Shown one piece after another: positions 39,769 through 61,856 of a stretch of DNA of 64,000 bases. A program made the position numbers and the translations under genes. Every line of letters starts with the position of its first letter. The first letter of the stretch is position 1. Under the pieces are notes generated by a model that worked only from the letters and a program-made list of their open reading frames with translations, made no database searches and was not told the origin of the DNA. The DNA comes from Candidatus Magasanikbacteria bacterium CG11_big_fil_rev_8_21_14_0_20_39_34 (GTDB lineage Bacteria; Patescibacteriota; Patescibacteriia; Magasanikbacterales; UBA922). The stretch covers positions 8,606-72,605 of the forward strand of contig PCWN01000003.1 in NCBI GenBank assembly GCA_002787355.1, written 5' to 3'.

Positions 39769-39780
39769 AAACTCTAAAAA

Positions 39781-39812: not shown

Positions 39813-39847
39813 TAAAAATATTCCTTTATAAAAAACATAGACAGATA

Positions 39848-39876: not shown

Positions 39877-39943
39877 CTCAGGTCAACTTTCGTGAAATTC
39901 TTTACGAAGATGACCTTTTTTGGTTTGTAGGAAAGGCAGAACC

Positions 39944-40354: not shown

Positions 40355-40437
40355 GTCCTGCCCCACCCAGGACCAATCCCCCACACTCCCTATCTTAAAA
40401 GAAGGTAATGAGTACCAAGGGATTTTCTGTCTTACCC

Positions 40438-40466
40438 TTGACATTTTTCGCTTATTTGGGTACTAT
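40438..40466 (+). promoter_or_regulatory. sigma70-type promoter (TTGACA-17-TACTAT) for rplA
   Basis: Hexamers with a 17-nt spacer, 127 nt upstream of the rplA ATG. Confidence 0.45.
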
Positions 40467-40592
40467 AGTGCCATTCATACAGAAAGGTCTTTCTTCAAAG
40501 AAAGCCCTGTGGGACCTCTGACCACTCAGAGGGATATCACCACAACTACGGAAGAACAAATATTTTATTTGTCGCCGTATTATCCATTTTTT
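40467..40592 (+). promoter_or_regulatory. structured rplA 5' leader (candidate L1 autoregulatory element)
   Basis: Two hairpins: GGTCTTTCTT-caa-AGAAAGCC, and CTCTGA-ccac-TCAGAG followed by GGGA. L1 mRNA operators mimic the 23S rRNA L1 site. Unverified. Confidence 0.3.
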
Positions 40593-42942: not shown

Positions 42943-43134
42943 GTGCCTGTCGACCCTCAAAAAATTTTGAACCAATATCTGCAATATGCCAAGCAGCTTT
43001 TTGCCAACTACAAAAATGACATGGATACACTTGAAAAAAGTGAAAGAGCCTATGCAAAAGAACTCTTAGAAACCACGGAAAAAGGAAAAATGCTGAAAAT
43101 TTACAAAAAAATTGATAATATTGAGGATAAGTAA
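42943..43134 (+). CDS. small helical hypothetical protein (GTG start)
   Basis: 63 aa with coiled-coil-like composition. Lies immediately upstream of the giant-operon promoter. Weak support. Confidence 0.3.
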   Translation: MPVDPQKILNQYLQYAKQLFANYKNDMDTLEKSERAYAKELLETTEKGKMLKIYKKIDNIEDK

Positions 43135-43163
43135 TTGACGAATAAAGATCTTTTTAGTATAAT
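43135..43163 (+). promoter_or_regulatory. sigma70-type promoter (TTGACG-17-TATAAT) for the giant-ORF operon
   Basis: Hexamers with a 17-nt spacer, 33 nt upstream of the first giant ORF. Confidence 0.5.
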
Positions 43164-43195
43164 CGCCTGTTAAAATAGTTTTTAACTTTCACCCT

Positions 43196-45961
43196 ATGTG
43201 TCCAGCACCACAATCAGAATCTCAACCCCAATCTGACCCAAAAAAGTGGGAAGTTATTCAAGGAGAGAAACGCGCTGGTGAAGAATATCAACCACCACAC
43301 TACGGTGACCTTTTTTCTCAAGAAAAACAAGATGCTCTACTGGAGAGACTCCAAAGCTCTCAATTAAAATCTCGTGAAAAAATAGCTCACAGAACCAATA
43401 AAGAAATTGCTAAACTTTTACGAGATAACCGAGTCCCAAAAACGGCAAAAAGGTACCTTGAACAAGCGGCCAAAGCCTTAGAAAACGATGATCAATTTTT
43501 AGGAAAGGAACTCATCTACAAAGCAGCCGATACCTCTGCAGAAGACTCATTTGATCTCATTGAATACAAACCTTTCAGAAAAGTTTTGAATTTTCTTCGC
43601 GACCCCCTTGTCATTCCTCAAAGCGGAGCATCTCGTGCAGCAAAAATGGCAGAGTTCTTTGACTATGGTATCCGCGAATTTGTCTGGGGAAGGAAACTTC
43701 CAGATACACGTGCAAAAATCAAACTTACACCGGATCAAGCACGTGCCAAGGAAAAACAGCGAAAAAAAGAGCTTGACGAAGAAACAGCACCAGAATCCCC
43801 CAATCATATACCAGAGAATATCAAAGAACATGGCGAAAATATTCCGCATGTGTTTTTTGCAAAAACAAAACGTGGTATTGAAAATGCTCTTGACTTCACT
43901 CGAAAATTTTTGGGGGATCGAACTTCCTCAGAATATGCCGAAATTGCAAAAAAAGAAGATCGCAAACTCAGTGATATTGAGCTTGCACACGAAAGAAGAA
44001 AAGATAAACTTCCCTCAACATTTGACCGCTGGGCCCAAGAAAATCTAGCTTTAGAGCTCCAAGCAAAACAAGTAAGTGACCGCCTCCTTGAAATTGTACG
44101 TGGAAGCGAAGAGGAAGATCCCCTTACAGGACAAAAACCCGTACTTGGTATTTTTGATAAAGTTCGAGAAGTTGTGAAAGAAGCTCCACTCGTTGCAGAT
44201 AAAGAAAAAAATCCTTACGCTATTGATCCAGATGAATTGGAAGAGCACATTAATATGGTGCGACAACAAGTTGGAAGAAATTATGAAAACCTTACTGCAG
44301 CATTAAGAAACCTTTACTTTGGAGGAGCTGCAAAAAATTCTTCCGAAGAGGAAAAGAAAACAACTCCTTCCCTGATGGAATCTCTTGATAGAAATGGAAT
44401 ATTTATCCCAGAACTGCATAAAGAAAAACGCCTTCTTGAAGGCCTCAAGGAAGTAGATGGTACACACTCTCAAGACCTTTCTCTCATGCGTGAATCTGAA
44501 ATACAAGGTGAGATTTTAATAGTAGAAATTGAAGGTGAATCACCCTCCGTAGTAGAAGTTCTTGCTTACTATCCAGATGAGGATAAACTTGAACTCAAAA
44601 ACCTCTCTTCAAATACTGAAGAAATTTTTTCCATTCACCCCCATGAACATGATGTCCGACAAATTCAAAAAGGTGATTGTATTGAATTGGTAGACCGAAG
44701 TACTGGAGAAAAAACAGAAGCGGAGATTATAGGAGATATAATGGTCCTTGATAAAAAAATCCCGGTTGAAATTACGATGAATGGAGAAAAACAACAATAT
44801 CTTGTATCACTTCAAGATTTTGATGTTCATAAGATATATAAGGATGAAAAAGAACAAATTATAGACCCGTCATCAGAGGCCAGTCCAGAAGAATCCAACG
44901 CGGAATCTTCTACAGGGACTCTTCTCCCTCGTGAACAAAAAGCAGAAAAAGAACCAAAATTGGTCCCCTTTCTTGTTATACCAGAAAGTATTTCAGAATT
45001 TGATCAATTTGTCATGAAAAATTCTGATGGAAAAGAAATACAAGTGGAAGTGTCCAATCTAAGAAATAACGGTCCATATACTCAAGCTTCCATAAGAAAT
45101 CTTAGTGGACGTGAACAACGGTGGGAAGCACAAATTTTAAAAAATGAATCTGATGTATCACTCGATGAATCCGGAGAAAAGGAAGATCATTGGACACTGA
45201 AAGAAAAACTTCGTTCCACCGAATCAAAATCCGATGATCTTGCATCAGATATTTTATATGAATTTGTGGAAAACGAATATCCACAAGAACTTACAAAAAA
45301 AGATAAACAAGGAAAACTGACCCCTACGTATTCTATTCCAAACAGGGACTCTGTAGTATCCTTACTCGAAGAATCTGTAGATACCGGAAAAAAACCTACC
45401 CGGCTACAAAAAGCTTCCCTTTCCTCTCTACACCATCTTGCTGAGGACCCATTGGAAAAAGAAGGACTTGCTGAAAAAATTGCGGAAAAAATCAAAGGGA
45501 AAAAAGAAACACATCCTTTTACTAAGCGAATGCAAAAGTTTGTAGGTAAGTTCAAGAATAGAGAAATGCAGAAACAAATGAAAGATACTTTATTCGATGC
45601 TAGACGTGAGTTAAGAGATAAAATAAACCTTGCAATTTTAGATAATAAAAATTTGATTATCTCCACAGCAGGACAAGAGGCATTTAAAGATGCATTAAAA
45701 ACAGAAACGGTAGGTCTGATGTACCGACTCTGGAGAATGATAGAAATTTTGGAAAATAAACTTCTGGAGATGCATCGTTCTATACGCAACCCCCACGAAC
45801 TTAAAGTGGCAGAGCACATTCTTATTCAGGCAACAAAAAAAGCACTTGATAAAGTTGTTTCAGGAAGTTTAACTCAAGCGGAACAAATTATTAAAACGGT
45901 AAAAGGTGATACAGAGCCCAAACAAAATGACTCTGCATGGTCTTTTGATGACGCAGAGTAG
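43196..45961 (+). CDS. giant hypothetical protein 1 (921 aa, acidic, no signal peptide)
   Basis: Uninterrupted ORF with native AT-rich composition, Lys/Glu-rich, no TM helix, no motif I recognise. Confidence 0.7.
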   Translation: MCPAPQSESQPQSDPKKWEVIQGEKRAGEEYQPPHYGDLFSQEKQDALLERLQSSQLKSREKIAHRTNKEIAKLLRDNRVPKTAKRYLEQAAKALENDDQFLGKELIYKAADTSAEDSFDLIEYKPFRKVLNFLRDPLVIPQSGASRAAKMAEFFDYGIREFVWGRKLPDTRAKIKLTPDQARAKEKQRKKELDEETAPESPNHIPENIKEHGENIPHVFFAKTKRGIENALDFTRKFLGDRTSSEYAEIAKKEDRKLSDIELAHERRKDKLPSTFDRWAQENLALELQAKQVSDRLLEIVRGSEEEDPLTGQKPVLGIFDKVREVVKEAPLVADKEKNPYAIDPDELEEHINMVRQQVGRNYENLTAALRNLYFGGAAKNSSEEEKKTTPSLMESLDRNGIFIPELHKEKRLLEGLKEVDGTHSQDLSLMRESEIQGEILIVEIEGESPSVVEVLAYYPDEDKLELKNLSSNTEEIFSIHPHEHDVRQIQKGDCIELVDRSTGEKTEAEIIGDIMVLDKKIPVEITMNGEKQQYLVSLQDFDVHKIYKDEKEQIIDPSSEASPEESNAESSTGTLLPREQKAEKEPKLVPFLVIPESISEFDQFVMKNSDGKEIQVEVSNLRNNGPYTQASIRNLSGREQRWEAQILKNESDVSLDESGEKEDHWTLKEKLRSTESKSDDLASDILYEFVENEYPQELTKKDKQGKLTPTYSIPNRDSVVSLLEESVDTGKKPTRLQKASLSSLHHLAEDPLEKEGLAEKIAEKIKGKKETHPFTKRMQKFVGKFKNREMQKQMKDTLFDARRELRDKINLAILDNKNLIISTAGQEAFKDALKTETVGLMYRLWRMIEILENKLLEMHRSIRNPHELKVAEHILIQATKKALDKVVSGSLTQAEQIIKTVKGDTEPKQNDSAWSFDDAE

Positions 45962-45982
45962 TTCAGCTATGTAATTTTTTCT

Positions 45983-47737
45983 ATGGCACGAGGTGAATAC
46001 CGAGTCGCAAAACAACTCACACAAGAATCTGTACACAGGCAGGCCAATCTTGATGCACAACAAGGCAAGCGTGTTCGGGGTGGAACAGATGTTATTCGTG
46101 TTCGAAATGCCAGAAAGGTTTCCGGTTATACTTATGAGAAGATAGATCGTAGAGGTGAATACATGGGTATTCATGTGGGTGACCGTGTACAGTTTACTCC
46201 CCTTTCATCTTTTGGTCACAGTCCTGGACTCCTGAGTGGATATGTTGCAGAAGTGCGTGGCCACATGTTCAAAGTACATCTCACACACCCCAAAGGACAT
46301 CCCGATGCTGGAAAATTAACTTCTCCACCAGATTTTGAGTATGTAAACTATGACAATATCGTCAATCATGTTGACCTTTCAACAAAAGCTGAGACACCTG
46401 AAGTTGAAACTCCTCCAGAAGAAACTCCCCCCACCGAAGCGGCGAGAGAAACTGAGGCAGAACCCAAACGAGAACAACTCACCGACTTTATTTCCTGGGA
46501 ACCAAGTACACAAACAGCCAATGTAGCTGGGACAGAAGTGTCCTTTGATCTTGGTGTTCCCCCAGAATGTGTGCTTTTGTCTCAAGAAGATGAAAGCGGA
46601 AATACACGACTTCGTTTTTCCTATAGTGATGAAAATTTTCTTGAGCTCTCAGCACTTGGTACGGATCAATATGCGTTTAGTATTCTCCTGCAAGGACAAA
46701 ATCCTGAAGTTCCAACGGAAGACGGCACAGCTACCATTCCCCTTCTTGGTGTTGAAGTGAAAAAGGAAAACATGGTAAATATTTTTCAACAGTTTGTTCA
46801 TGCAGTAAAAGGTTTGGATATTGTGGCTCCGGAAAGTGAACCTACTCCTTCAATAGAAGGCGAAGAAGAAAATGTAGATGAAGAGCCAAAGGAAGAAGCG
46901 ATTGAACAAAAAAAGGAAAAAAGAAGACCTGATACAGATATTCGTACACACGTAGATGACCTTGTAGCACGACAACTTGGACGTGATATCGTTGGAGCCG
47001 CGGTAGATCAAGAATTGGATCGAATGCAAGAGATTGAAGAAGTGCTTGAAGCACAAATCGAAAGATACAAAAAAGAATTAAAAGAGAGGGTAAATACAGC
47101 AATATTACAACTACAAGCAAAAGATCATGGGAAAAACCGTCTTTGTTGTGATCCTTCTTACTTTGATGAAAAACTTTTAAAAGTTTTACAAGATACAGAA
47201 AAAATTCAAGATCTCCTTTCAATCATAGATGATCCCCAAAATTCAAATCTGTTTCCAACTGATAAAATTGTTTTTACCAGTGAAACCTTTGCAGATAATG
47301 TACTCATGCAGCCAGACACCAAAATGCTTTACATTAATAGAGATGCCACACCAGAAGATCTTAGAAATTTTTATGAGAATTGCAAACAAGCAAAAAATGA
47401 TCGTGAAGCATTTTTTAAGAGTCTTCAAGCATTAAATGCCCCTTTCGTATATTTCACCGATGAGGTTCATCATTTTGATCAAAGTTTTATAGATACCTCC
47501 ATTGGAACAGAAGGCACCAAAGCTATTAAAAAATGTGCCGAATTTATTACCAAAAACCCTGTAAAAGGAACCGTAGAAAAAATAGTTATTTCCGTGAAAG
47601 AAACGGATCAGTTATTTGTGTATGACAAAGAACAAAAATTCCTTATTATAAGCCCAAAGGCAGGTTGGGAAAACTATGAAGACAAACTAAGAGAAGTACT
47701 CCTTATCATAGAACAAACAGCTCCATCCAGATCTTAA
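45983..47737 (+). CDS. giant-operon protein 2 (584 aa, hypothetical; Pro/Glu/Thr-rich linker)
   Basis: 22 nt downstream of ORF1 on the same strand. Linker ETPEVETPPEETPPTEAARETEAEPK. Confidence 0.65.
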   Translation: MARGEYRVAKQLTQESVHRQANLDAQQGKRVRGGTDVIRVRNARKVSGYTYEKIDRRGEYMGIHVGDRVQFTPLSSFGHSPGLLSGYVAEVRGHMFKVHLTHPKGHPDAGKLTSPPDFEYVNYDNIVNHVDLSTKAETPEVETPPEETPPTEAARETEAEPKREQLTDFISWEPSTQTANVAGTEVSFDLGVPPECVLLSQEDESGNTRLRFSYSDENFLELSALGTDQYAFSILLQGQNPEVPTEDGTATIPLLGVEVKKENMVNIFQQFVHAVKGLDIVAPESEPTPSIEGEEENVDEEPKEEAIEQKKEKRRPDTDIRTHVDDLVARQLGRDIVGAAVDQELDRMQEIEEVLEAQIERYKKELKERVNTAILQLQAKDHGKNRLCCDPSYFDEKLLKVLQDTEKIQDLLSIIDDPQNSNLFPTDKIVFTSETFADNVLMQPDTKMLYINRDATPEDLRNFYENCKQAKNDREAFFKSLQALNAPFVYFTDEVHHFDQSFIDTSIGTEGTKAIKKCAEFITKNPVKGTVEKIVISVKETDQLFVYDKEQKFLIISPKAGWENYEDKLREVLLIIEQTAPSRS

Positions 47738-47742
47738 ATCTT

Positions 47743-50100
47743 ATGCATCAAGCCTACGAACGACTGAAAATAGCACTAAACGATGCCCGCAACGTAGTAG
47801 ATACTGCTGGATTTTTTGATATTGCAGAAACAGATCTCGAAAAAGCTGTGGAGAGAATGGACATAACAGACCTAAGGATGACACTTGAAGCATTAAAAGA
47901 AAAAAGAAAAATGGTTGCAGACGCACGCATGGCACTCCCAGAGCGTCCCCCCCGATTTGAAGCAGAAGTCATAGAAGAAGCAAAAAAAGATCCAGACTCC
48001 TTCTTTTCTGCACACCAAAAAGCTTTGAATGCAGCCACAAATGGTGAAGCCATAGGACGTGATGACTTAAACCAAGCTCTCCAAGGTGTGCTGTTAGACC
48101 TAAGTGACGCAACGTTCTTTTTTGAACCTGAAGCCCAAATGAACTTTTTAAAAGAAAAGAAAAAGGAAGAAGAAAGAAGAAAAATTATTTCAGATATACA
48201 AAGCAAATCTCTAGAACGTCCATTTTTTCCCTATACCCTTGCCCCTCTTGGCCGAGAACTAGATTTTATTTCAAACGAGGGACTGGAACTCATCCTCCAA
48301 AATCTTCCAGAGCTTGGGCATATCCTGAAAAAATATGAATTTGTTCCTGATGAAATCCTTCTTGAAGATACAGTACCTGTAGCATTTATAGACACTACCC
48401 CCCTAAATGGTCTCCATCATACCAAACTCCGGATTACACTCAATAATGAATACTGGAAAGAAGAGCTTGGAAAAGAAATTGCCGCCTCTCATCAACCTAC
48501 TACAGAAAGAGAAACAAATAATAACAAAATTCGCTTTATACTTTGGGATACACAGTTTGGAAAGAATCTGCATGCGCGGGTATATATTCAAAACGGATTT
48601 GTAGATGATAGACGTACACCTGCATTCCTTGCAGATACCACAGACACAGGTTTTAGAAACAAGTTATTACAGGTCCAGAGCTGGATAGAAGAATATGCAA
48701 GAGAAATTTTAGAAGATAGTACACTAGACATGTCCATTACAATAACTCAAACATGGAATGCAGGAGGTTCAGGAACTCTTGAAATTCCTATCTTTAAAGA
48801 TGAAGCAACCATTAAACTATTTATTATTGATTACGTAGATGACTACAAAAAATTAAAACTCTTTAACTCTGTTCGAAATACGTTTTCAGAACCAGAAAGA
48901 ATTAGTACTTCTTCTTCTGATATTCCAGACACCATCTCCGAAAACGAAATGCAAAAACGGATAGAAGAAATCCTGAATACCCTTGATCGTGCAGGATTGT
49001 CCAAAGTAAAAGTAGTCAATGCGGGGTACTCTCGGATAGACCTCTCAGATGAAAGTATTTTCGTTTGTTTTTTTGATGATGATTGGAGGGAACAACTCAA
49101 TGCTTGCATTGAAAAGTATACAAGAAAATTAGAAGACGATAGACAAGAGCAAGAGCAAAAAAAAGAACGCTCTGCAGCAATCCTGAGGGTACAAAGACTC
49201 GTTGAAGAATTTAATACTCGATCTGATCAGATAGAAATAATTATACGTGATAATTATTTTACATATCTTCAGACCTCAGAAATCATAGATCATGAACGAG
49301 ATTTGCCACTTATTTTTCGTCAACTCAGAACTGGAGATTATCCCCGCATACAAAAAATTGTTTTTCTCCCAGGTCTCATGCCTTCCTATAAAGATGAACA
49401 TGGTACAACATTTTTGAATATCAAGGGATGTACTTTTCAGGACGTTCAACGTGAATTGGACTTTTTTGGGCACGTCTCTTTTGCTCATAACCATGAAGCA
49501 GAATCGTCTTCATCTGACTGGAACAAAGGGTTCTACTTTAGTGGAAAACTTACAGACTCAAAAAAACGTAATGGTATTGGCACGACCTACTCAGGCACCA
49601 ACCTAAATGATCCCACTGAAGGGGGAGAATACAAAGATAATAGACTCGTGAAAGGAAAGCGCTATGTAGGTGATAATTGTTATATTTACATAACTGAGGA
49701 AACTGACGTATCCTATCAAAACGGAATGGTTGAAAGAATAGAAAATGGACCAGCCACAATTTTTGTTAATGAAAAAAATTCAGAAAAAAACCCCAGAGAA
49801 AATTATGATGTCGTCTTTAGGAATGGAGAAATTCAAGAACTTAAAAGCTCTTCTCACACTGGACAGACACTTCCCCTTACTGTCGGACAGCGCTATGAGT
49901 ATCTCCCCAAAAAAGGTGTCCTATCAAGACTCAAAACAGAAAAAGCGAGAGTTTCCAATATGTATATTTCAAGTCGCGGAGATAATCTACTGTATGTTGA
50001 TATAATTACTCCGGAAAATGAAACCATAACAGTACCCTATAATAAAATTGATAAATATCTAAGAACGCTACCAGAGCCCAAACCCAAAAAAAAATCCTAA
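47743..50100 (+). CDS. giant-operon protein 3 (785 aa, hypothetical; C-terminal MORN-like Gly/Tyr repeats)
   Basis: 5-nt gap from ORF2. C-terminal YFSGKLTDSKKRNGIGTTYSGTNLNDPTEGGEYKDNRLVKGKRYVGDNCYIY resembles MORN repeats. Confidence 0.65.
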   Translation: MHQAYERLKIALNDARNVVDTAGFFDIAETDLEKAVERMDITDLRMTLEALKEKRKMVADARMALPERPPRFEAEVIEEAKKDPDSFFSAHQKALNAATNGEAIGRDDLNQALQGVLLDLSDATFFFEPEAQMNFLKEKKKEEERRKIISDIQSKSLERPFFPYTLAPLGRELDFISNEGLELILQNLPELGHILKKYEFVPDEILLEDTVPVAFIDTTPLNGLHHTKLRITLNNEYWKEELGKEIAASHQPTTERETNNNKIRFILWDTQFGKNLHARVYIQNGFVDDRRTPAFLADTTDTGFRNKLLQVQSWIEEYAREILEDSTLDMSITITQTWNAGGSGTLEIPIFKDEATIKLFIIDYVDDYKKLKLFNSVRNTFSEPERISTSSSDIPDTISENEMQKRIEEILNTLDRAGLSKVKVVNAGYSRIDLSDESIFVCFFDDDWREQLNACIEKYTRKLEDDRQEQEQKKERSAAILRVQRLVEEFNTRSDQIEIIIRDNYFTYLQTSEIIDHERDLPLIFRQLRTGDYPRIQKIVFLPGLMPSYKDEHGTTFLNIKGCTFQDVQRELDFFGHVSFAHNHEAESSSSDWNKGFYFSGKLTDSKKRNGIGTTYSGTNLNDPTEGGEYKDNRLVKGKRYVGDNCYIYITEETDVSYQNGMVERIENGPATIFVNEKNSEKNPRENYDVVFRNGEIQELKSSSHTGQTLPLTVGQRYEYLPKKGVLSRLKTEKARVSNMYISSRGDNLLYVDIITPENETITVPYNKIDKYLRTLPEPKPKKKS

Positions 50101-50106
50101 AATAGT

Positions 50107-53100
50107 ATGCATGAACAATTTCGGGCACTTCCCGAAGCACAACGCAGTGAAGCACTCCTCAATCAAATTGGGGCTCTTGTCCATGTCTCCGGTTTTAAAT
50201 GGAAGGACGTTCTGGATGGAGGAAAACAAGCCTTAAGAGAGGGAAGACTTCATGAGGGAAATCTTTCTGTCTATCATGCCATGATGAGAGAACTTTATAC
50301 CCTCAAAGGAGAACTTGGTACCGCAATCTCAGAACACCCAAAAGAAGCAAAATTTGCTTTTCGTGAAAAAGAAATAGCCGGAAGAACCATACACATTGCA
50401 GAAAATGTTTCAGATATTGATCTTGCACTGCGAGAAGATGATATTGCATCATTTGTTGAATATACAAAAGATCCCCTCTTCTCAAAAGCACCTATAAACA
50501 GACTGGAGATAAGAAAAAAGAATTTTTCGCCCAAAAGAGCTGGTGCCCCCGCAAAAAGGGAAGAAAAAATTATTCTTCGTGTTACCTTTTCTTCAGGATA
50601 TCAAACGGATTTGCCAGATACTACGATTGGTGGATCCTCGCCACTCAAAATAAAATTTGAACATACCGCAAAAAATTCACATAATCCCCCAACACCATTT
50701 AGACTCTATGAAAGTGGTATTGATGAGAAAACTCTTGAAAAAAATCATTGGTCAAGAGATGTGGATGAGACCACAGATCCACCAATAACAACCATTAAAG
50801 ATGCCGCAGGAAGCATCATTCAAAAAGGAACCTTCAATCAAAAAGGAGAACTTTTACAAGGAGTAAGTAATTATAAAATACCTGTTATAGGCACGCAGGG
50901 AATGCGAATTACACAAGATACCCGCCAGGTTGACGGCTCTCTTATCCTTTTGGAAGAGCACATTGAGGACAATCCGGAAAATAAAATATATGCGAACACA
51001 AAATTAGTTGGTTTATTTGAAAAAAAACCAGATGGTGGAAAAGGAGAATCTCTCTCCCCACTTGCCGTGTACGACAAAGATGAAAAACTTATAGCGGTCA
51101 CCAACAGGAAACCACTCCAACGAGGAGAAAAAGAAACTGACTTCTCATTTCTCAAAGGGAGGTTAAGTACAGCGCTTTCTGAAGGAACGGGCTTAAAAAC
51201 ACTTGAAGCCTCTTTTGTAGATGAATACATCCATGGGGATGTTTCCACAGTGGCACAGGAGATCGCTCAGAATATTCTTCATCCAAAGGATTATAAAAGA
51301 GTTCCTGAACTTTCAGTTGCTATTGAACGGACACTTTTCCTCTTTGACTTGTATACAATGAATCCACTTGTAGAAAGTGCAAAAATCTCAACAGATACTT
51401 TGGATACTTTACAAGATGCCATAAATATTCTTCTACAAAATGCCGTCATAGATCTTCATGCAAGAATTGATAGACTGGCACAAGATTATATTGCGCTTGA
51501 CAAAGGAGGGTTCCTACCCGAAGAAAAAATTGGAGAATTTGCCATGCGACTTAAGGAGGAACGCAGACAAGTTGAACATACTTTTCAAACACAAAAAGCA
51601 GAGCTTTTTGAATTTGTCCAGAAAACCGGATCACTTGAAGCCACATTTGAGAATACAGCACTTGCAGTAGACCAAAATGATGGATCTGTTTCTATGGCAG
51701 AATCTGTACAACCAGCTCTTACAGTAATTGATAAAATTTTAGCCGCCATTGATGGTGATTTAGATCCGCCACCTACGCTATCGGAACCAGAGCCGGAGCC
51801 AGAACCTGAGCCAGAACCTGAGCCAGAGCCAGAACCAGAACCAGAGCCAGAACCTGAGCCAGAACCTGAGCCAGAACCTGAGCCTGAACCTGAGCCAGAA
51901 CCAGAGCCAGAACCTGAGCCTGAACCTGAGCCAGAACCTGAGCCAGAACCTGAGCCAATAAAACAAGAAACACTCCTTTCTCCAGAAAAAAAGGCGGAAA
52001 TGGAACGAGTGAAAGAACTCTACAAACCAACGTATCCGGTTACTCTTCTTGATGGAAGTTCAAAGTTTGAGAACTTTTCGTCAAATCCAGATACCAAAGC
52101 ATTTACTGAAATGAAGGAGTATCTTGAAAATGCTCGTCTGGTAGCACTGGAAGATGCCCATGGAAGTGCCTACAAAATTTTTGAACGTGCTATTCTTTCC
52201 GGATTTATCACGCTTCCCGAAGAGAAAGCAAAACGATTTCAAGAGCTCTACCAACAGGCCGTGAAACTTCGTTTTGGTGAATTAAAGACCGTGCCTGCAT
52301 ATGGCGTAATACTTAAAGATCCACTTGATGACCCGGCTTCTTTTGAAAATTTTAAAAAACTTCATGATGAAATGCTTACGATTATTGCTGAAATAGAATG
52401 GACGGGAGAAGATAGAACCTACCTTCTCCTTGGTGATACGGTCTATGACAGAGGCCTCTCAGATACACTCACCCTTGCGCTGATAGAAAAAATGCGCAAA
52501 GAAGGGGGAAAAGTCCCTATACTTGCCTCAAACCACGACCTTTCCGTGTTCTTACAGGACCTCCACATACAAACACTGTATATATCCCACATTACTGCAG
52601 AAAAACTTGGAGAAGATGAAGCGCGCAAAAAAGAATATGTGGCCAATCATGATGTCTTCTATTATGATGCAGAAACACAAAAAATCTTTGCGCATGCTCC
52701 TATAAACCTGGGAGTTATCAATGAGCTAAAAAAAGCTACAGGATTTACGGATGACATAGACCAAAAAAATCTTCCTGAATTTATAGAAAGATGTAATAAG
52801 TGGTACCATGATCTCCTGCACAAATGTCTTGAAGGCCATGTATTTACAAATGAGGAAATAATTCTACTAAAAAATGTTACTTGGAAAAGTGATCCCTACT
52901 CTGACCTGTACATATTTGAAAGAGGCCGTGAACCCGTTCGCCTGAGTGAAGATAACCTCCCAACAGAACAAAGACTGCCACTGAAAGGCGTTGTACGGCA
53001 GTTCATTCATGGACATGATTCTAGTAGTAAAAAAAGTCCATTTGATATACGTCAAAACCATGCGAATACACCAGACTACACAACCGTAAATCTTGATAAT

Positions 53101-53937
53101 GCAACGTACCGAGGTGAACGCGTTGGTGATAGAACGCCAGCCCTCTTCTTTGCTATAGGAGAAAAGAAAGAAGCACCTGAAAAAAAGAAAGAAGAAAATC
53201 CCTATCTCTCAGAATCTATTCTTGGACAACACATCACCCGGGTGGTCCATGACATTGTGGTAAAAACAGGAGACTATTTCCGTTTTTCAAATGATAACGG
53301 AAAAACATGGATCTATGGACGTGTCGCTTCTATCTCGGAAAAAAGAACAGATGCCGACCAAAGCTTTCCTTTTTTCAGAGAAGAAGATGGAAGAGTGATG
53401 TATTTTAATGGTTATAAAAAAAGCATGCACGATATAGGCACCCAGTTTGAAAAACTTGATGAACCTGGTAAACATGCAGAGGCTAAGAAAACACAGGAAG
53501 TGGATTCTGAAAAACTCTTGGCAATCCTCAACGATCTTCAACCATACTTACCAAGTATACAGCCCGAAAAAATTGTACCGACGTGGATTCAAAAAGCCAA
53601 AGAAACATCCAGTATTCCTATGGAAGTCCAAAGGCAAATCATCATCCTTTCTCAGAGAAATCATAAGAATCATGAATACTTTGATTGGTCAGAAGAGAAT
53701 CCACTTGCAACTAAACTCCGCGAATTGGCAGCAGTATTTGGAGTAACTCTTCTTACTTCAGAGGGGCAAATCCCAGATAGAGAGAAACATTATAACCAAA
53801 GAGGCATTGATCACGATGACCTGAAAGCCCAAGGGATAAATATACAACGCAATCGTATTTATAAAACACTTGCCCCAGGTTTTATTGCGTCAAATGGTGA
53901 AGTCATCAGTCAAGAAAATGTTTTGGTAACTTTTTAA
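50107..53937 (+). CDS. giant-operon protein 4 (1276 aa): N-terminal region, (Glu-Pro)x29 linker, calcineurin-like/PPP-type metallophosphatase-like domain
   Basis: EP repeat at aa 560-617. Downstream motifs in canonical order: LEDAHG (GDxHG-like), [11 protein letters not shown] (GDxxDRG) and ILASNHD (GNH[DE]-like), then FIHGHD. Confidence 0.7.
51784..51957 (+). repeat. 29 tandem copies of a 6-nt GAR-CCN unit encoding (Glu-Pro)29
   Basis: Counted codon by codon. The units are imperfect at synonymous positions (gaa/gag, cca/cct/ccg). Confidence 0.9.
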
Positions 53938-53962
53938 TAAAAATATAGTCTAAAATTATTTT

Positions 53963-56900
53963 ATGCCACAAAGCTCCGCATACAAAGAACGAGTACAACA
54001 AGAAGTACTCGGTACCAAAAAAGTACTGCGGGATTTTGGTATTGAAAAAATAAAATCCGATGCAGATCTTTTTAAGGCTTTACGTGCCCTTCGTGATGCA
54101 GGACGACTGGATGAGTTAAAAGCACTGCTTCATGCCCGTCGTGAGGCCATTACCACCGCTCTTGGAAAAACTATTATTCTTGGAGGAAGAGATGGAAAAT
54201 CAAGATATTTTGAAGGAGAAGTTGTGGATGATCTCCCCAATGGAGTTGGACGCATCATAGAGGGCAAGAAAGTAGAAGCAGACGGTGAATTTAAAGATGG
54301 CTACCTTCAGCATGGCATTGCATACAGATATGATGGTGAAACCCTACGATTTACTACCATAGTAGAAGAAGCATATCCAAATGGTAGGGTAAAAAGCGGA
54401 AGTATTATCAACGCAAAAGACGGAAGACGTCTTTCTTCCGAAGCATTTCACGAGGACGGAACCACAGACCAAGGTGAACTTATTGATGAAAATGGTATTG
54501 TGTTAAAAGAAGGTGCTTTTGTAGTTTATGATAAACACCTGCTCCTTTCTTCCGGACAGATTGAGCACTATCCCCACACACATACAGTCCATATTGGGGA
54601 TCAAGATATTCCAATAGTCCGCACAGACGCGAATTCATACCGATTTGAAAAGCAAGCGGATACTTATCAAGAAATGCCGGAAGGCAAAGGAACAACTACC
54701 GATACCAAAGGCCAAGTCTATGAAATTTACTTTGAAGACGGAAAAGACTATAGAGCACAAGGATATGTAAAGGTTTACAAATCAGCGGAAGAGCACAAAC
54801 TTCTCAGAATACTCAATCGTGAAATTTCCTTTGCTCCTCCAGCGCTTGATCAAGATGCTATACAACAAAAACTTGCAGAACTGCGCACCGGTAAGGGTGA
54901 AGAAGCAACTTTGCGAACTGAACTAAGTGATCTCTACAAAACAACTCATGATGCACATACTACCTTCAACAATGAACTGGTTCCCTTTATACAAAAAAAT
55001 TATGTAGATGCATCAGTAGGAGATATACAGAGTAAGCTGAAAATTGGTCATTTTGCTACCAAACTCAATGCAAAAATTACTACGCTCAAAAAACAAGCTA
55101 ACACTGAACCTGATCAAATAACCCTAAAACATGCACTGGATACAATCCGATACCAAGGTTTTACCAAAGGAGCAACGGAAAGCCTAAAAGATCTTCTTGC
55201 AGAATATTGCACTATAGACAATAGTACCGGTGGATTTATCTCTGACTCAAACAAAGATGCCTTCCTTGCAGCCTATTCTGCAAATATGGAAGCAACACTT
55301 GCACAAATTCGAAGCACCCTAGATACAACTGCGGAAGCCTTTTTGGATGAGAAAAAAGCACGTGAAATTACTTCAGGAAATATTCACAAATGGTTTAAAG
55401 AATTAGGTGAGGCAAAAGGATTTTCCTTTTCTGTAGCAGGATCCACCTTTGAATTTCGAGCAAATTTACAACCTGATGGATCTCTTCATGCTCAGTATGA
55501 TGAGGATGAAATGAATATTGTACTCAATGGAGATGCCCTCACTGCAACCGTACGTATTGCAGGAAAAGAATCTCAACGTAGCCTTCCAAATTCAAAAGAA
55601 TCACTAAAACTATTGCTTCTCGGTTTTAAAGCAGAGCTAGAGAAAAAAGAACAAAGCAGAGCCGTTGAAGCTGCTATTCAGACTGCTGCCAATGCACACA
55701 TTTGGCCTTGTTGGGACGAAAAAACCCAATCTCCCGCTTCTCCTGCAAAGCTTGATGAAGATACCGGGAAAAATTTTGATGCTGCCAGACGCAGAGTTCT
55801 CCATACCCTTGATTTTTCTATTGATCGAGATACCTATTTTGAAATTTATACGCAATGGTTTGATGCACATATTGCAGAATATGGAAGCAGTGGTGAATAT
55901 TTTGCAGATGTGTACAAAGGTGATCGAGAAAAGAAATTTCGCATTATTCAACTGCTTGAAAAAGATTCTTTTAATGAAGATGAAAAAGGAGAACTTACTG
56001 AACTTCTTTCTTATTTAGAAAAAGATGTAAAAGGAAACCACGATCTCATGAGTGCTCTTGAGTACTCCTCTGATACATTAAAAGAACAAATAAAAACTCT
56101 TAAAAAGAAACTTGGAATAAAAAAAGAAAAGAAAAGTCCGACTGATGCGCCCAAAAAAGTTGAAGTCACACAGACAGAGCAGTTTCAAAGAGATCTTCAA
56201 GATGCACAGAATGATATTGCGCAAATGCGTACGATTCTTGTAAAAGATTCACTGAGCGAATATGATGAAGCGACCCTGGGTGATTTAGCAGAAACACTAA
56301 GGTTCACCCTTGAGAGACTTGAACAGATTGATCCAACACTCTATGACCAACTTGATACCACAAAGAAAGCACTCTGGGCAGAGCTCAAACTTAATCAAGA
56401 AACAGCAGAACAACCCGGAAACGAATTTGTTCGTGACCATACGGAGACTCCTGAAGACAGTGAACCACGCATGGGTCCCTACGCTGAATATGATACAAAA
56501 AAGATATCTTCTGCAATTCATGCCGTAAAAGAATTAGTCATCCTGTTATCGGAAACTGATGAAGAGTTAGAAGATGCTACCCCCTTCATGGAGTTTGAAA
56601 TGGATTTAATAGCACTCCTTTATCTCACTTCAAATAAAAGTGGTAGAAAAACCGAAGTACTTTCCGCTCTTCATGGAGTCTTTGATAATCCAGGTCAATT
56701 TTTTGAATCTCTCAATAATATAGAAGATGTCATTGCAGATGAGTACCGAGAACGAACCCTTGAATCACCCATTTCAGCAGAAGACAGAGCACTTGCAATG
56801 AATATCTTAAATATCCTCAATAAAGATTCAGATCTTTCTCTTTCAGTATTAGAAAAAAGAGCGTATTATTGTGCAAAGTGCATTGTAGATGAACGGGAAG

Positions 56901-59212
56901 ATACTTTCTTGCGTATCTATAGAAGTACTGTCACCGATACTCCTGACGAATCAATTGAATCCCAAAGAATGCTCGCTCTTGTCGGACAAAAAAATATACC
57001 AGAAGCCCTTACTGCAGAAAAAGTAAATGAAATATTAAAAGGATATTATTACACACGCATAAATGAACATATAGAAAGAATGGAACGTGCGCAAGCTACG
57101 AAAGGAAGGGATTATGCCACACGTATAAAAGGAGTCGCACAACAAAAGTCCGTTTCTGAAATGGATGAAACTGAGCGAACTATCCTTGAATCAGATATAA
57201 ATGTTCTCTTACTTACCCGGGGGAAATCTGAATACAAAAAACAAAAACAAGAGGCAGTTATTGGAGCCTTGAATGGTCAGTTTGAAAATTACGAACAACT
57301 CCTTGAGGCCATATACAAAAAAAATCTTGAACTTGTCATATATAAAAGAGATCACTCTACGGCACTTCCCCCAGATGAATATGCCCTTGTACGTGCACTC
57401 ATTGATGCCAATAATGAAGAGGAAGAAATTGTACATAAAGACCGTCCTGAAGAAAAACAAATAGTGCCTGCAAAACATTCTTTATTTAGAATAGACAAAA
57501 ATATTCGGATGATCCGTGGTATTGTGCGTACTGGTGGAGCACAATGGCTTCGTATTCATCTTGGAGATCCTCTTCGTGTACAAGAAAGAAATGGTACTAT
57601 CACTCTCCCTGCACAAACAGAAAGACGGATTGCAAACCTCAAATCAAAGTATCCAGACCTCTGCAAAGATCCAGAAGGGAATGAAATTTCAGATATAGAA
57701 CTTACCCAAAAGCTTCAAAATCTTTTGGAAGACTATTATTATTTTGAAATAAAAACCAATCGTGCCAATCTAGAAGAAAGAAAAGAAAATGTCTTTGAAC
57801 ATAAAGCCTTTTCTGAGATGTCTCCTTCTGATGAACAACGTTTTGTAAATAATTTGGTATTCTTTGGGGTACACCACATAGAACGTAGACGAATGGTTAT
57901 GGGGATATTTGGTCTTACCCCAGAGGAATATAATGCATTTCTTTTAGAAGTGAAAAAGGTGGATGATGAATATACACGATTCAAAATAGCAAATGCTGAA
58001 AAACCAACCCAAGAAGAAATGTCACTCGCACATGCTCTAAGAAAAGGTAATGAACTTGATCCAAAACTCAAACACATCTTAGATGAACGACAAAAATACC
58101 GAAGAAATAGACGTGCTATCCCGAAAGATTTGGAGCTGAACAGAGACCAGCATAATCAAGTTCGGATGAGTCTCCATGATGTGGAGACACAGTTTATTGA
58201 ATTGCGAAGAGGACTTTTATCTAAAGATGCAGTGCGTTTGTATGCACTTGAACCTATTCTGCGAAAATACGGGGCCATAACAGAAGAAAGAATTAAAAAT
58301 GCACAACAAGCATATACCGGTACTCAAGATGTTTCTTCAATTTCACGACAAACCTGGAATGATGCATACACCAAGCATTTTTATTGGAGACTCAAACAGG
58401 CGCAAGAAAAGAAAATTGCTGATGATGCAGCAAGAGAGAAAAGAGTTCAAACAGGCCAACGCGTCCGTGCTACCGGTGGGACAAGCGATGCACAGCTCGC
58501 AGGAAAACTTGGAGGGCTTTTTGCAAATGTACTTCAAGATGTTGACCTATCCAGGGCACAGTATGCTCCAGAAAAAATAGACGCTATTCTGTCTGGACAC
58601 TCTGAGGTGCTTACCCGTTATGTGAAGGCACGTCCTGGCGCCACCTATACGACAGAATTTCTTACAAAGTATCTGACAAAAGAAAAACTAAAAGCACTTG
58701 AAAAAATTGTGGGAGACAAAAAATATTCTCCACTCTTTGAAGAATTATCTCTTACCATAGTACTTGTTGAACCTAAATTCAATGGAGAAGATGGAGCAGA
58801 CCAAGATATTGAAGGTGAAGAAATTGACTTGGATCTCTCTATTCCAAACTCCCTTGATTCTCTTCGAGAAGCTCTCGAAGACCTGCTCAAAGAACAAGAA
58901 GAGCAAAACGCTGAAGAAAAAATTAATGCCTATATATTAAAATTCTTAGAAAATTATGAGATACAGGGGAATCCCGGAGAAGATAACCTGGAAAACATAT
59001 TCCTGGTTCAAGGGGAGACCAGAATATCCGCAGCTGACTTTGCAACAGAAAAATTTGAGAACCTCTCAAATGAGTTTATAGAAAAGAATATTGCAAAAGG
59101 AGCAAATGTCCTTTCCATTACAGAAGCCTTCATTGATATTGTCAAAAACACCCTTTCTGAGTCAGCAGATGGTGAAGAGGATAATAATACAGAGACGCTT
59201 GACGAAGAATAA
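53963..59212 (+). CDS. giant-operon protein 5 (1749 aa, hypothetical; N-terminal MORN-like repeats, long helical remainder)
   Basis: N-terminal YFEGEVVDDLPNGVGRIIEGKKVEADGEFKDGYLQHGIAYRYDGE repeats. The rest is Glu/Lys/Leu-rich with an acidic C-terminus, no TM helix and no signal peptide. Confidence 0.7.
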   Translation: MPQSSAYKERVQQEVLGTKKVLRDFGIEKIKSDADLFKALRALRDAGRLDELKALLHARREAITTALGKTIILGGRDGKSRYFEGEVVDDLPNGVGRIIEGKKVEADGEFKDGYLQHGIAYRYDGETLRFTTIVEEAYPNGRVKSGSIINAKDGRRLSSEAFHEDGTTDQGELIDENGIVLKEGAFVVYDKHLLLSSGQIEHYPHTHTVHIGDQDIPIVRTDANSYRFEKQADTYQEMPEGKGTTTDTKGQVYEIYFEDGKDYRAQGYVKVYKSAEEHKLLRILNREISFAPPALDQDAIQQKLAELRTGKGEEATLRTELSDLYKTTHDAHTTFNNELVPFIQKNYVDASVGDIQSKLKIGHFATKLNAKITTLKKQANTEPDQITLKHALDTIRYQGFTKGATESLKDLLAEYCTIDNSTGGFISDSNKDAFLAAYSANMEATLAQIRSTLDTTAEAFLDEKKAREITSGNIHKWFKELGEAKGFSFSVAGSTFEFRANLQPDGSLHAQYDEDEMNIVLNGDALTATVRIAGKESQRSLPNSKESLKLLLLGFKAELEKKEQSRAVEAAIQTAANAHIWPCWDEKTQSPASPAKLDEDTGKNFDAARRRVLHTLDFSIDRDTYFEIYTQWFDAHIAEYGSSGEYFADVYKGDREKKFRIIQLLEKDSFNEDEKGELTELLSYLEKDVKGNHDLMSALEYSSDTLKEQIKTLKKKLGIKKEKKSPTDAPKKVEVTQTEQFQRDLQDAQNDIAQMRTILVKDSLSEYDEATLGDLAETLRFTLERLEQIDPTLYDQLDTTKKALWAELKLNQETAEQPGNEFVRDHTETPEDSEPRMGPYAEYDTKKISSAIHAVKELVILLSETDEELEDATPFMEFEMDLIALLYLTSNKSGRKTEVLSALHGVFDNPGQFFESLNNIEDVIADEYRERTLESPISAEDRALAMNILNILNKDSDLSLSVLEKRAYYCAKCIVDEREDTFLRIYRSTVTDTPDESIESQRMLALVGQKNIPEALTAEKVNEILKGYYYTRINEHIERMERAQATKGRDYATRIKGVAQQKSVSEMDETERTILESDINVLLLTRGKSEYKKQKQEAVIGALNGQFENYEQLLEAIYKKNLELVIYKRDHSTALPPDEYALVRALIDANNEEEEIVHKDRPEEKQIVPAKHSLFRIDKNIRMIRGIVRTGGAQWLRIHLGDPLRVQERNGTITLPAQTERRIANLKSKYPDLCKDPEGNEISDIELTQKLQNLLEDYYYFEIKTNRANLEERKENVFEHKAFSEMSPSDEQRFVNNLVFFGVHHIERRRMVMGIFGLTPEEYNAFLLEVKKVDDEYTRFKIANAEKPTQEEMSLAHALRKGNELDPKLKHILDERQKYRRNRRAIPKDLELNRDQHNQVRMSLHDVETQFIELRRGLLSKDAVRLYALEPILRKYGAITEERIKNAQQAYTGTQDVSSISRQTWNDAYTKHFYWRLKQAQEKKIADDAAREKRVQTGQRVRATGGTSDAQLAGKLGGLFANVLQDVDLSRAQYAPEKIDAILSGHSEVLTRYVKARPGATYTTEFLTKYLTKEKLKALEKIVGDKKYSPLFEELSLTIVLVEPKFNGEDGADQDIEGEEIDLDLSIPNSLDSLREALEDLLKEQEEQNAEEKINAYILKFLENYEIQGNPGEDNLENIFLVQGETRISAADFATEKFENLSNEFIEKNIAKGANVLSITEAFIDIVKNTLSESADGEEDNNTETLDEE

Positions 59213-59230
59213 TCCTCTCAAAAAATCGAA

Positions 59231-59262
59231 AAATCCGGTTTGCCAGACCCGGATTTTTTTTA
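59231..59262 (+). terminator. rho-independent terminator ending the giant operon
   Basis: Stem AAATCCGG/CCGGATTT followed by TTTTTTTATAT. Confidence 0.5.
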
Positions 59263-59297
59263 TATACTGAGCACAAGATTATTTGTAATAATACCCT

Positions 59298-61749: not shown

Positions 61750-61856
61750 TAACCACTTTTTTGATATACTAAAAAGGTACGAGAAACACTCTTCAGTAGA
61801 CAGAACGGAATATTTTTTATTGCACTTTGTCTATTGTTCTTTGTAACCTTCCTTGT

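Follow-up and report, generated by a model that had tools for sequence, protein, structure and literature searches.

What is a 16-kb block of five large genes doing in the middle of a nucleotide-metabolism operon, and are its genes real, native and functional? Orphan genes are common in the genomes of CPR bacteria, and to our knowledge little is understood of how these bacteria recognise their partners and act on them, while the genes specific to their lineages mostly lack annotation. The block belongs to an uncultivated groundwater CPR bacterium represented by a Candidatus Magasanikbacteria MAG from Crystal Geyser, where it interrupts the dcd-kinase-dut-thyA-dhfr gene order, with dUTPase encoded upstream and ThyA and DHFR downstream; the remainder of the 64-kb window (the whole stretch of DNA that was analysed) is occupied by housekeeping genes. 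Here, we addressed the organization of this locus, its state in related genomes and the properties of its products. As a large orphan operon that is natively adapted it makes a clear case, and its insertion point can be fixed to the nucleotide by comparison with dozens of relatives.

Organization of the operon and authenticity of its genes

Five consecutive ORFs of 921, 584, 785, 1276 and 1749 aa, amounting to 5,315 aa, occupy the + strand just as an earlier note on this DNA had described them, and the spacers between them are 21, 5, 6 and 25 nt, the first having been given there as 22 nt. A sigma-70-type promoter-like site, TTGACG-17-TATAAT (43135..43163, + strand), is found 33 nt upstream of the ORF1 ATG, matching the consensus in 11 of 12 positions and scoring highest within 42-61 kb; since the total of promoter-like sites (42) equals that in shuffles (42.3), the single consensus promoter proposed earlier should be taken as suggestive only. 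As to the claimed terminator, 16 nt past the ORF5 stop codon a hairpin of 11 pairs resembling an intrinsic terminator (59228-59259) runs into a U8 tract (59228..59262 in all, + strand), and its predicted RNA fold of -12.9 kcal/mol (z = -3.5) was equalled in stability by 1 of 200 shuffles. The pattern scan flagged it on the - strand only, because the loop on the + strand exceeds the limit of the scan. Overlapping this hairpin, a second promoter-like site, TTGCCA-17-TATACT (59240..59268, + strand; 10 of 12 positions), lies 30 nt upstream of the thyA ATG and could restore the expression of thyA-dhfr after the insertion. The operon reading follows from the short spacers (5-25 nt), from the highest-scoring promoter-like site ahead of ORF1 and from the hairpin and U-run that come after ORF5; the block is a natively adapted, self-contained transcription unit with five genes and perhaps a sixth. 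The sixth candidate, which remains uncertain as a member of the unit, is a 63-aa ORF with a GTG start (42943..43134, + strand) situated between dut and the promoter-like site, that is, within the inserted segment; it is K/E-rich, helical-looking and predicted as a gene in assemblies of JGI, ENA and Logan, gave no family match in profile searches and would find no room in the relatives having a dut-thyA gap of at most 100 nt.

ORF1 and ORF2 share one frame, being separated by one TAG and seven sense codons, and ORF3 and ORF4 likewise stand in the same frame with a single stop between them. Read-through or recent splitting of a longer gene was therefore considered and is not favoured, because two in-frame junctions out of four are unremarkable (p ~0.4) and no assembly differs from the others at these stops.

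ORF1-5 are real genes. The base composition of the block sets the stop-codon probability at 0.067, so that a stop is expected every ~15 codons; the longest open run over 50 shuffles of the block reached 172 codons, and log10 of the probability to stay open over at least 1749 codons is about -53. GC content by codon position is 0.51-0.59, 0.33-0.35 and 0.25-0.29 in ORF1-5, and the native codon usage noticed earlier was confirmed by RSCU correlation with 20 genes of the window (r = 0.90), from which the GC-rich PBP gene of the same window departs while the block does not. In six independent assemblies from different samples, both junctions are identical and so is the entire sequence of the block except for a Glu-Pro-encoding repeat in ORF4, all differences between assemblies being register shifts within this repeat. 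Since the assemblies agree and codon usage matches that of host genes, frameshifted fragments and assembly artefacts, which the earlier note had kept in mind as a way to dissolve the puzzle, do not account for the ORFs.

The dut-thyA junction in related genomes

The gap between dut and thyA measures 16,394 nt here but at most 100 nt in 27 of 43 relatives, and the block is accordingly a lineage-specific insertion into a module that is otherwise contiguous, in agreement with what had been supposed from a single genome. Inspection of the neighbourhood in relatives, which had been recommended, thus supplied the uninterrupted state of the locus but not a single homologue of ORF1-5 at 80 related loci; on sequence comparison, the block occurs in a single Candidatus Magasanikbacteria population. 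That islets of variable content may lie between conserved core genes is a general concept of comparative genomics, and the dut-thyA junction is a recurrent hot spot of this kind, because eight relatives hold at the same place other charged, TM-less and Pfam-less orphan ORFs (205-909 aa) that are unrelated to those of the block. This status was not recognised in the earlier note. The ORFs of the relatives are not homologous to ORF1-5, and only those of L086 and L039 are mutually related; the one of L058 displays a weak match to intermediate-filament (coiled-coil) proteins (E 2.7e-4). Neither an integrase nor a tRNA marks the site. A recurrent hot spot of gene birth or gene turnover is thereby revealed inside a conserved operon.

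Four orphan proteins and a Wip-type phosphatase

None of the five products contains a TM helix or a signal-like hydrophobic stretch, the maximal Kyte-Doolittle mean over 19 residues being 1.11, which bears out the absence of signal peptides and membrane segments suggested before. They were also described as acidic and rich in Lys and Glu. The proteins are acidic indeed (pI 4.9-5.4) and Glu/Asp-rich (Glu 11.0% vs 6.5% in native genes), but Lys is not enriched (8.1 vs 8.0%). Searches in Pfam, NCBIfam, PHROGs, PADLOC and PDB gave no known domain beyond the phosphatase of ORF4.

ORF1 (PIR04423.1, COV59_01080; 43196..45961, + strand) is an acidic, soluble orphan devoid of significant Pfam, PHROG, PADLOC, NCBIfam or PDB matches, and phmmer against 1.84 billion representative proteins retrieved solely its own 231-aa fragment. 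ORF5, the largest orphan (PIR04427.1, COV59_01100; 53963..59212, + strand), has no significant family, PDB, phage or viral-contig match, and a word-indexed search over 5.8 billion proteins returned it alone. Within the reach of these searches, the orphan status of ORF1 and ORF5 is demonstrated. The same 5.8 billion proteins do not include the exact ORF4 of the window, and queries with the full length and with aa 620-1276 of ORF4 retrieved no protein at all, ORF4 included, so that they say nothing about its homologues; with the full length, the EP repeat had probably flooded the candidates. Soluble ORF2 (PIR04424.1; 45983..47737, + strand) is a singleton in 90% clustering and was matched by no family, PDB entry, phage or plasmid, and the exact protein is present on 17 contigs from independent assemblies. 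For soluble ORF3 (PIR04425.1; 47743..50100, + strand), nothing significant emerged from families, PDB, phages, plasmids or viral contigs, and its AlphaFold2 single-sequence model (mean pLDDT 35.0) is unusable for fold discovery. The lack of homologues as such is uninformative with regard to function.

MORN-like repeats, which had been listed among the recognisable features, did not stand up to profile analysis: near aa 80-145 of ORF5 the beta repeats stay below threshold, Pfam (PF02493) reporting one repeat at aa 83-97 with 16.6 bits vs the cut-off of 22.5 and none in ORF3 and ORF4, so that no protein of the block has the several repeats above the gathering threshold expected of the family. 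Comparison of the five proteins by BLASTP, hhalign, phmmer and a hand-seeded HMM disclosed neither paralogy nor a common domain apart from a marginal similarity of Gly-rich beta repeats between ORF3 594-664 and ORF5 78-144 (hhalign E ~0.005). Apparent internal repeats of ORF5, and small beta-barrel-like segments perceived by eye, fell below significance and were rejected. A common N- or C-terminal signal was not found in the five proteins either (Smith-Waterman alignment vs shuffles, z <= 2.5).

ORF4 (50107..53937, + strand) begins with 550 aa assigned to no family, continues through a (Glu-Pro)29 linker at aa 560-617 (51784..51957, + strand) and a phosphatase domain, and ends with ~270 aa again without family. 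The linker is encoded by a 12-nt tandem repeat, the sole part of the block that varies between assemblies, and the length of ORF4 is 1232, 1276 or 1320 aa depending on the assembly; the length variants of the repeat comprise 7, 29 or 51 Glu-Pro units and may be either true alleles or products of assembly. The phosphatase-like segment mentioned in the earlier note could be specified by profile and alignment matches as a Wip-type, PPP-like metallophosphatase domain at aa 660-1010 (52084..53136, + strand), and it is the one domain in the block that can be assigned at this level. Pfam PF21663 WipA_Phos matches with E 2.4e-16 and 60.3 bits, exceeding the gathering cut-off of 27 at domain level, while NCBIfam NF043030 T4SS_Wip, aligned from 16 to 309 of its 330 positions (E 2.7e-23), gives 82.6 bits vs a naming cut-off of 300; ORF4 is accordingly taken as a member of the Wip domain family and not as an orthologue of the Legionella effectors. 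WipB was also the PDB match of the domain (5nny, 8e-5), and BLASTP aligned ORF4 with Legionella WipB over 344 aa at 22% identity (E 5e-11), all catalytic residues being in register.

The motifs defining metallophosphoesterases are DxH, GDxxxDR (in the Wip spacing), NH[E/G/D], a downstream His and GH(D) (PMC5572681, PMC5454105). In ORF4 they read D683-A-H685, G776-D-TVY-D781-R782, N809-H810, H863 and H968-G-H970-D971, so that the presumed catalytic set comprises D683, H685, D777, D781, R782, N809, H810, H863 and H968-G-H970-D971, corresponding in WipB to D32/H34, D118/D122/R123, N150/H151, H231 and HGHD. The Wip-specific spacing of the second motif, GDELVDR in WipB (PMC5572681), takes the form GDTVYDR in ORF4. 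The phosphatase is thus apparently catalytically intact, and the block supplies a testable enzyme from a domain family whose characterised members are translocated Legionella effectors only (PMC5454105, PMC5572681).

Structure prediction added little, since the AlphaFold2 single-sequence model of aa 645-1276 (mean pLDDT 39.6) is unusable for fold discovery. Foldseek ranked WipB and WipA on top for this model (E 1.6e-5), and in view of TM scores of 0.19-0.33 and rmsd of 14 Å the match is considered as driven by sequence. A metagenome pattern scan of low sensitivity based on the alignment of ORF4 with WipA and WipB retrieved only this population itself (L087) along with a contig encoding WipB of Legionella (L088) and, within that low sensitivity, no other Wip-like protein of CPR origin.

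Possible roles and comparison with known systems

The function of the operon we infer from the features above, and our best guess, offered tentatively, is that the block may represent a private partner-interaction or effector-like module. Its proteins would act on or at the cell with which the symbiont lives, ORF4 would dephosphorylate partner proteins phosphorylated on Ser, Thr or Tyr, and the remaining four might be fast-evolving binding, scaffold or effector proteins. The Wip-type domain, as the sole positive functional clue, leans the interpretation towards the effector or host-interaction option; absence of a Sec signal in any of the five implies delivery by a non-Sec route or release upon contact, and rapid turnover of the locus would explain why homologues are not detectable. 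Several observations speak against the proposal. A secretion signal of any kind is absent, as is a shared terminal motif; the 64-kb window contains no secretion apparatus, T4SS genes included; the Wip-like domain accounts for only ~6% of the 5,315 residues, and its NF043030 score is far under the naming cut-off. Bacterial PPP phosphatases also serve purely internal signalling.

The strongest form of the partner-interaction proposal, namely a private arsenal of giant effectors that includes a Wip phosphatase of eukaryote/Legionella type and is delivered into the partner cell independently of Sec, we consider unlikely. Were it true, either CPR bacteria would possess an unrecognised means of protein translocation or the host with which, or in which, this Magasanikbacterium lives would be a eukaryote, an association proposed for some Patescibacteria that occur together with protists (PMC11722414), and the dut-thyA junction would be a hot spot of effector innovation where host-interaction genes are born and replaced. 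The literature search on the biology of Magasanikbacteria and on Legionella-like effectors in Patescibacteria brought nothing specific. Export of the proteins would point to a new route of delivery or to a host that was not expected; if they are not exported, the block shows how much "private" cytoplasmic machinery a genome of roughly 1 Mb can afford.

The latter situation underlies the main rival explanation, which is possible although we hold it doubtful: the five proteins would build a lineage-specific internal structure, for instance an apparatus of attachment or polarity, which the ORF4 phosphatase would regulate through dephosphorylation. Cytoplasm is the default location for products lacking signal peptides and TM helices, tight spacing of the genes suggests roughly stoichiometric co-expression, and the large size and acidity of the proteins together with the acidic Pro-rich (EP)29 tract are consistent with a scaffold, as are the intermediate-filament match at the same junction in L058 and a possible functional analogy with the terminal-organelle cytoskeleton of Mycoplasma pneumoniae. 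A structure encoded by 16 kb would nevertheless be expected in some relatives, yet it was met at none of the 80 loci; the low-confidence AlphaFold2 models indicate mixed alpha/beta, multi-domain proteins and not long coiled coils, and the EAGR box and other terminal-organelle families are absent among Pfam matches of the five proteins.

It is improbable, in our estimation, that the genes are an evolutionary by-product, that is, "proto-genes" or runaway expansions which are expressed, have little or no function, and are tolerated and not selected at a permissive, well-transcribed locus. Orphan status of ORF1 and ORF5 and the presence of different charged, low-hydrophobicity orphan ORFs at this junction in other species fit such an origin, and the population variation by which purifying selection might be displayed is absent, the assemblies differing only in the EP register; but in AT-rich DNA so dense in potential stops selection is required to keep five frames open over 15.9 kb, the phosphatase has kept all nine of its catalytic residues, and reductive pressure on CPR genomes is strong. 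Still less credit is given to an anti-phage or anti-competitor island, in which the hot spot would collect defence genes and the five proteins would form a new system, an option entertained in the earlier note. At defence hot spots, unrelated genes typically replace one another rapidly in a fixed position, and some defence systems exploit nucleotide metabolism, the genes of which adjoin the block, though the best PADLOC-DB 2.0 matches are insignificant (E 0.012, falling on the EP repeat, and 0.09), no P-loop or other NTPase, nuclease, HExxH, kinase or further enzyme motif accompanies the phosphatase, phage-related families were not found, and typical cassettes encode fewer and much smaller proteins. 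An origin from a mobile element or phage, as its cargo or its remnant, or from foreign DNA brought in by faulty assembly or binning, could be imagined from an insertion equipped with its own promoter and terminator among dcd, dNMP-kinase, dut, thyA and dhfr genes resembling a phage nucleotide module, and is largely refuted, since this module is chromosomal and, in dozens of relatives, conserved beside the gene of ribosomal protein L1, PHROG (a library that would include integrase and transposase) gives no significant match to any of the six ORFs within the insertion, no direct or inverted repeats flank the block, IMG/VR, INPHARED and PLSDB give no matches, and codon usage and junctions are those of a native, reproducibly assembled segment.

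Among known systems, the closest likeness of the putative partner-interaction module is offered by WipA, WipB and WipC of Legionella pneumophila, Dot/Icm effectors of PPP fold (PDB 5n6x, 5y9o, 5nny). ORF4 660-1010 aligns over the whole catalytic domain of WipB, keeps DxH, GDxxxDR, NH[D/G], the later His and HGHD, and the architecture is likewise modular, a phosphatase being joined to non-catalytic regions of targeting type. Unlike the Wip proteins, to which it is likened by sequence only, ORF4 is 1276 aa long and 22% identical, includes the (EP)29 linker and ~820 residues without family, and comes from a CPR bacterium with no known Dot/Icm system.

Terminal-organelle cytoskeletal proteins of Mycoplasma pneumoniae are large, acidic, proline-rich and signal-less. 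HMW1, HMW2, HMW3, P65 and P200 may be taken as analogues of the block in that they are lineage-restricted products of clustered genes in a reduced genome, some bearing acidic proline-rich tracts, with a link to control by Ser/Thr phosphorylation. Sequence similarity, an EAGR box or a shared Pfam family is not found between the two sets, long coiled coils are not predicted in the block, and the Mycoplasma set shows conservation in its own clade, while that of the block was found in no relative.

Giant proteins of Omnitrophota exceed 10,000 aa, are extracellular for the most part and carry SecA-like domains besides numerous TM helices (bioRxiv 10.1101/2023.11.21.568195). The block proteins, with 584-1749 aa, no TM helix and no SecA domain in Pfam, are of another type, but share with those giant genes and with other ultra-small predatory or symbiotic bacteria the unusually large coding investment in poorly annotated proteins suspected of interaction with host or prey. 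As regards the locus itself, its occupants differ from those of chromosomal integration hot spots in being all highly charged orphans without recognisable accessory functions, and the overall pattern is the same: a fixed junction, empty in most relatives and holding unrelated occupants in a minority of them.

An intact and natively adapted operon

The block consists of ORF1 (43196-45961, 921 aa), ORF2 (45983-47737, 584 aa), ORF3 (47743-50100, 785 aa), ORF4 (50107-53937, 1276 aa) and ORF5 (53963-59212, 1749 aa), all on the plus strand, and the ORF list reproduces exactly the five frames of the earlier note apart from the first spacer, which is 21 rather than 22 nt and is followed by spacers of 5, 6 and 25 nt. 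The length of these open frames is far beyond chance: base composition of the block implies one stop codon per ~15 codons, 50 shuffles produced no open run beyond 172 codons, and the longest ORF in the five remaining frames of the actual sequence has 210 aa. GC content at codon positions 1, 2 and 3 (0.51-0.59, 0.33-0.35 and 0.25-0.29) displays normal coding periodicity. ORF1 and ORF2 share a reading frame, being separated by TAG and 7 sense codons (45959-45985), as do ORF3 and ORF4 with TAA and 2 sense codons between them (50098-50109), these stops being identical in all assemblies; such arrangement at two of four junctions is compatible with chance, and read-through or recent gene splitting would be possible at both. 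ARAGORN places a 98-nt tRNA-Glu(UUC) opposite ORF3 (48269-48366, minus strand), probably a false positive; no Rfam family, tRNA or otherwise, reaches its gathering threshold anywhere in the 64 kb of the window.

The supposed consensus promoter (TTGACG-17-TATAAT, 43135-43163, plus strand) is indeed the best site within 42-61 kb and is suggestive only, because the number of such sites there equals the shuffle expectation. The terminator predicted to close the operon corresponds to an 11-pair hairpin and U8 tract 3′ of ORF5 (-12.9 kcal/mol, z = -3.5 by RNA folding). A Shine-Dalgarno sequence is absent from all genes examined, native and inserted alike. As had been proposed, none of the five proteins has a signal peptide or TM-compatible hydrophobic stretch (maximal 19-residue hydropathy 1.11), and we are confident in predicting products made without Sec or TM signals. 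Their acidity also stands (pI 4.9-5.4), with Glu/Asp more frequent than in 20 further window genes (Glu 11.0 vs 6.5%), and only the alleged richness in Lys disappears in this comparison.

The block is not an assembly artefact: over its length and both junctions, six retrieved loci agree with the window at 99.8-100% identity, and all differences fall within the (EP)n repeat of ORF4; the ORF2 protein recurs unchanged on 17 contigs of JGI, ENA and Logan assemblies of different samples. In NCBI, ORF1-3 correspond to PIR04423-PIR04425 and ORF5 to PIR04427.1 (COV59_01100), a "hypothetical protein" of the CG11_big_fil_rev MAG of Candidatus Magasanikbacteria, a CPR/Patescibacteria lineage. The native look of composition and codon usage is borne out by comparison with housekeeping genes of the window (RSCU r = 0.90; GC3 0.27 vs 0.31). 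By contrast, the PBP1A gene in a GC-rich island (31834-35900; GC 0.54-0.57 vs ~0.38 elsewhere), a class A penicillin-binding protein of 981 aa with Transgly and Transpeptidase domains (31834-34779, minus strand), looks like a recent horizontal acquisition because its GC3 is 0.66 and its codon usage is anticorrelated with that of host genes (r = -0.25); ORFs at 34.2-35.9 kb of this island have no Pfam match. Otherwise the window has the gene content of an ordinary chromosome, with pentose-phosphate enzymes, GyrB, RF1, RNase J, TrpRS, FtsW, SecE-NusG-L11 and L1. Judged by its sequence, the block is a real, expressed-looking and natively adapted operon.

Gene turnover at the dut-thyA junction

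Scanning for ThyA with one genome per GTDB species gave 80 loci with 10-kb flanks, mostly from Magasanikbacteria and other Parcubacteria, in which, by tblastn, the genes recur in the order L1 - dCMP deaminase - P-loop kinase - dUTPase - ThyA - DHFR. Among 43 loci with a same-strand dut upstream, the dut-thyA gap is at most 100 nt in 27, 100-700 nt in 10 and 848-2818 nt in 6, against 16,394 nt in the window; the block thus does interrupt this module. The earlier note had suggested looking for co-occurring homologues of all five proteins, and tblastn found none of any of them at the 80 loci. Eight relatives, from among other Magasanikbacteria and Parcubacteria, carry one or two plus-strand ORFs each (205-909 aa) at the same junction: L012 (7051-9699), L034 (7268-9997), L058 (7452-9992), L063 (8287-9975), L028 (3117-4361), L086 (7757-9196), L039 (8969-9994) and L022 (9370-9987; a second ORF, 7400-8650, precedes dut and follows the kinase gene). 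These ORFs are highly charged (28-45% D+E+K+R), have neither TM helices nor Pfam domains, and are unrelated to ORF1-5 and to each other, with the sole exception of L086 and L039. Since other orphan ORFs occupy the same junction in relatives, it is a recurrent site of gene gain or turnover, a hot spot inside a conserved operon, and the block is by far its largest occupant. We regard the operon firmly as lineage-specific and located in this hot spot. The site lacks flanking repeats, an integrase and a tRNA. The insertion carries its own promoter-like site and terminator; a further promoter-like site (TTGCCA-17-TATACT, 10/12 positions, 59240-59268), overlapping the terminator 30 nt upstream of thyA, may drive thyA-dhfr and compensate for uncoupling from the upstream genes.

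Elsewhere in the window, the L11-L1 pair is split too (37476-40500). Between the two lie genes for a 2-hydroxyacid dehydrogenase and for a lipoprotein (38496-39407, lipobox LISGC) that has a Kazal-type protease-inhibitor domain, together with two small ORFs lacking an assignment; many relatives have similar genes of ~340 aa after L1 rather than between L11 and L1. The mechanical call of L1 itself (40017-41270, 417 aa from GTG) is an over-extension, as the L1 domain covers residues 219-409 and the protein called in other assemblies has 221 aa and starts about 40605. Downstream of DHFR (60796-63517), three ORFs (317, 354 and 209 aa) lack a Pfam match; for two of these, some relatives show matches, all weak (24-43%).

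Four orphans and a Wip-type phosphatase domain

Outside ORF4 the claimed lack of recognizable domains persists: Pfam, NCBIfam, PHROGs, PADLOC and phmmer against all PDB chains gave nothing significant for ORF1, ORF2, ORF3 and ORF5. ORF5 matched only itself among 5.8 billion proteins, and a full HMMER pass with ORF1 over 1.84 billion cluster representatives returned only a fragment of itself. In 90%-identity clusters ORF2, ORF3 and ORF5 are singletons, ORF1 being grouped with two of its own fragments and no other full-length member. Scans of IMG/VR (ORF1, ORF3, ORF4C, ORF5), INPHARED (ORF2, ORF3, ORF5) and PLSDB (ORF2, ORF3, ORF4C) were empty. The MORN-like repeats reduce to a single sub-threshold repeat. 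ORF1-5 have no detectable paralogy and no common terminal motif, the only similarity within the block being marginal (ORF3 594-664 vs ORF5 78-144). By these searches, four of the five proteins have no family placement. AlphaFold2, run without homologues to align, reached pLDDT of 35 for ORF3 and 39.6 for the C-terminal half of ORF4, and these low-confidence models display mixed alpha/beta structure rather than a long coiled coil.

The phosphatase-like segment of ORF4, in turn, gains a precise identity at aa 660-1010, matched by Pfam WipA_Phos (60.3 bits, cut-off 27), NCBIfam "Dot/Icm T4SS effector Wip" (E 2.7e-23, profile positions 16-309 of 330) and the PDB entries of WipB and WipA; Foldseek with the low-pLDDT model refound only these two, with poor TM-scores. 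Aligned to the Legionella WipB gene retrieved by metagenome scan (22% identity over 344 residues, E 5e-11), ORF4 keeps D683/H685 (DxH), D777/D781/R782, N809/H810, H863 and HGHD968-971, Wip active-site residues established by mutagenesis and structure (PMC5572681, PMC5454105), and its GDTVYDR has the same three-residue spacing as GDELVDR of WipB. Because no generic Metallophos match is reported, the similarity is specifically Wip-like. ORF4 is a carrier of a Wip-type domain, firmly predicted to be intact, and not a Wip orthologue, since its NCBIfam score lies well below the family naming cut-off (300). Before this domain, a 12-nt tandem repeat encodes (Glu-Pro)29 (51784-51957, plus strand, aa 560-617), presumably a stiff acidic spacer. 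Assemblies differ here in steps of 22 EP units, giving ORF4 versions of 1232, 1276 or 1320 aa, which reflect either real length polymorphism or repeat collapse/expansion in assembly.

Possible role of the block

CPR bacteria depend on partner cells, and genes engaged in host-symbiont conflict typically show extreme lineage specificity and locus turnover. Since the block displays both features, and since the only characterized relatives of its enzyme are translocated effectors, we tentatively favour the reading that its proteins might act as a partner-interaction or effector-like module, a reading against which counts that no export signal or apparatus is seen. The lack of signals fits equally well a scaffold in the cytoplasm to which a regulatory phosphatase is tethered, a reading that we consider doubtful yet worth keeping in view. 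The stricter form of the effector-like reading, an arsenal of genuine effectors together with either a delivery route other than Sec or a eukaryotic host, is unlikely, although some Patescibacteria do occur with protists (PMC11722414). Less likely than the effector-like or scaffold readings are tolerated proto-genes (quite improbable for frames of such length), a defence system (more improbable still, PADLOC giving nothing significant for the four orphans) and, last, mobile-element cargo or mis-assembly, for which the chances are slimmest given the unmarked junctions reproduced between assemblies; something else takes the remaining probability. Orphan genes and variable islets are common in CPR genomes. 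While the whole block matches no described system, we rate it, on sequence grounds, as a probable lineage-specific accessory or effector-type islet of a CPR bacterium, combining a Wip-type phosphatase with unusually large orphan proteins.
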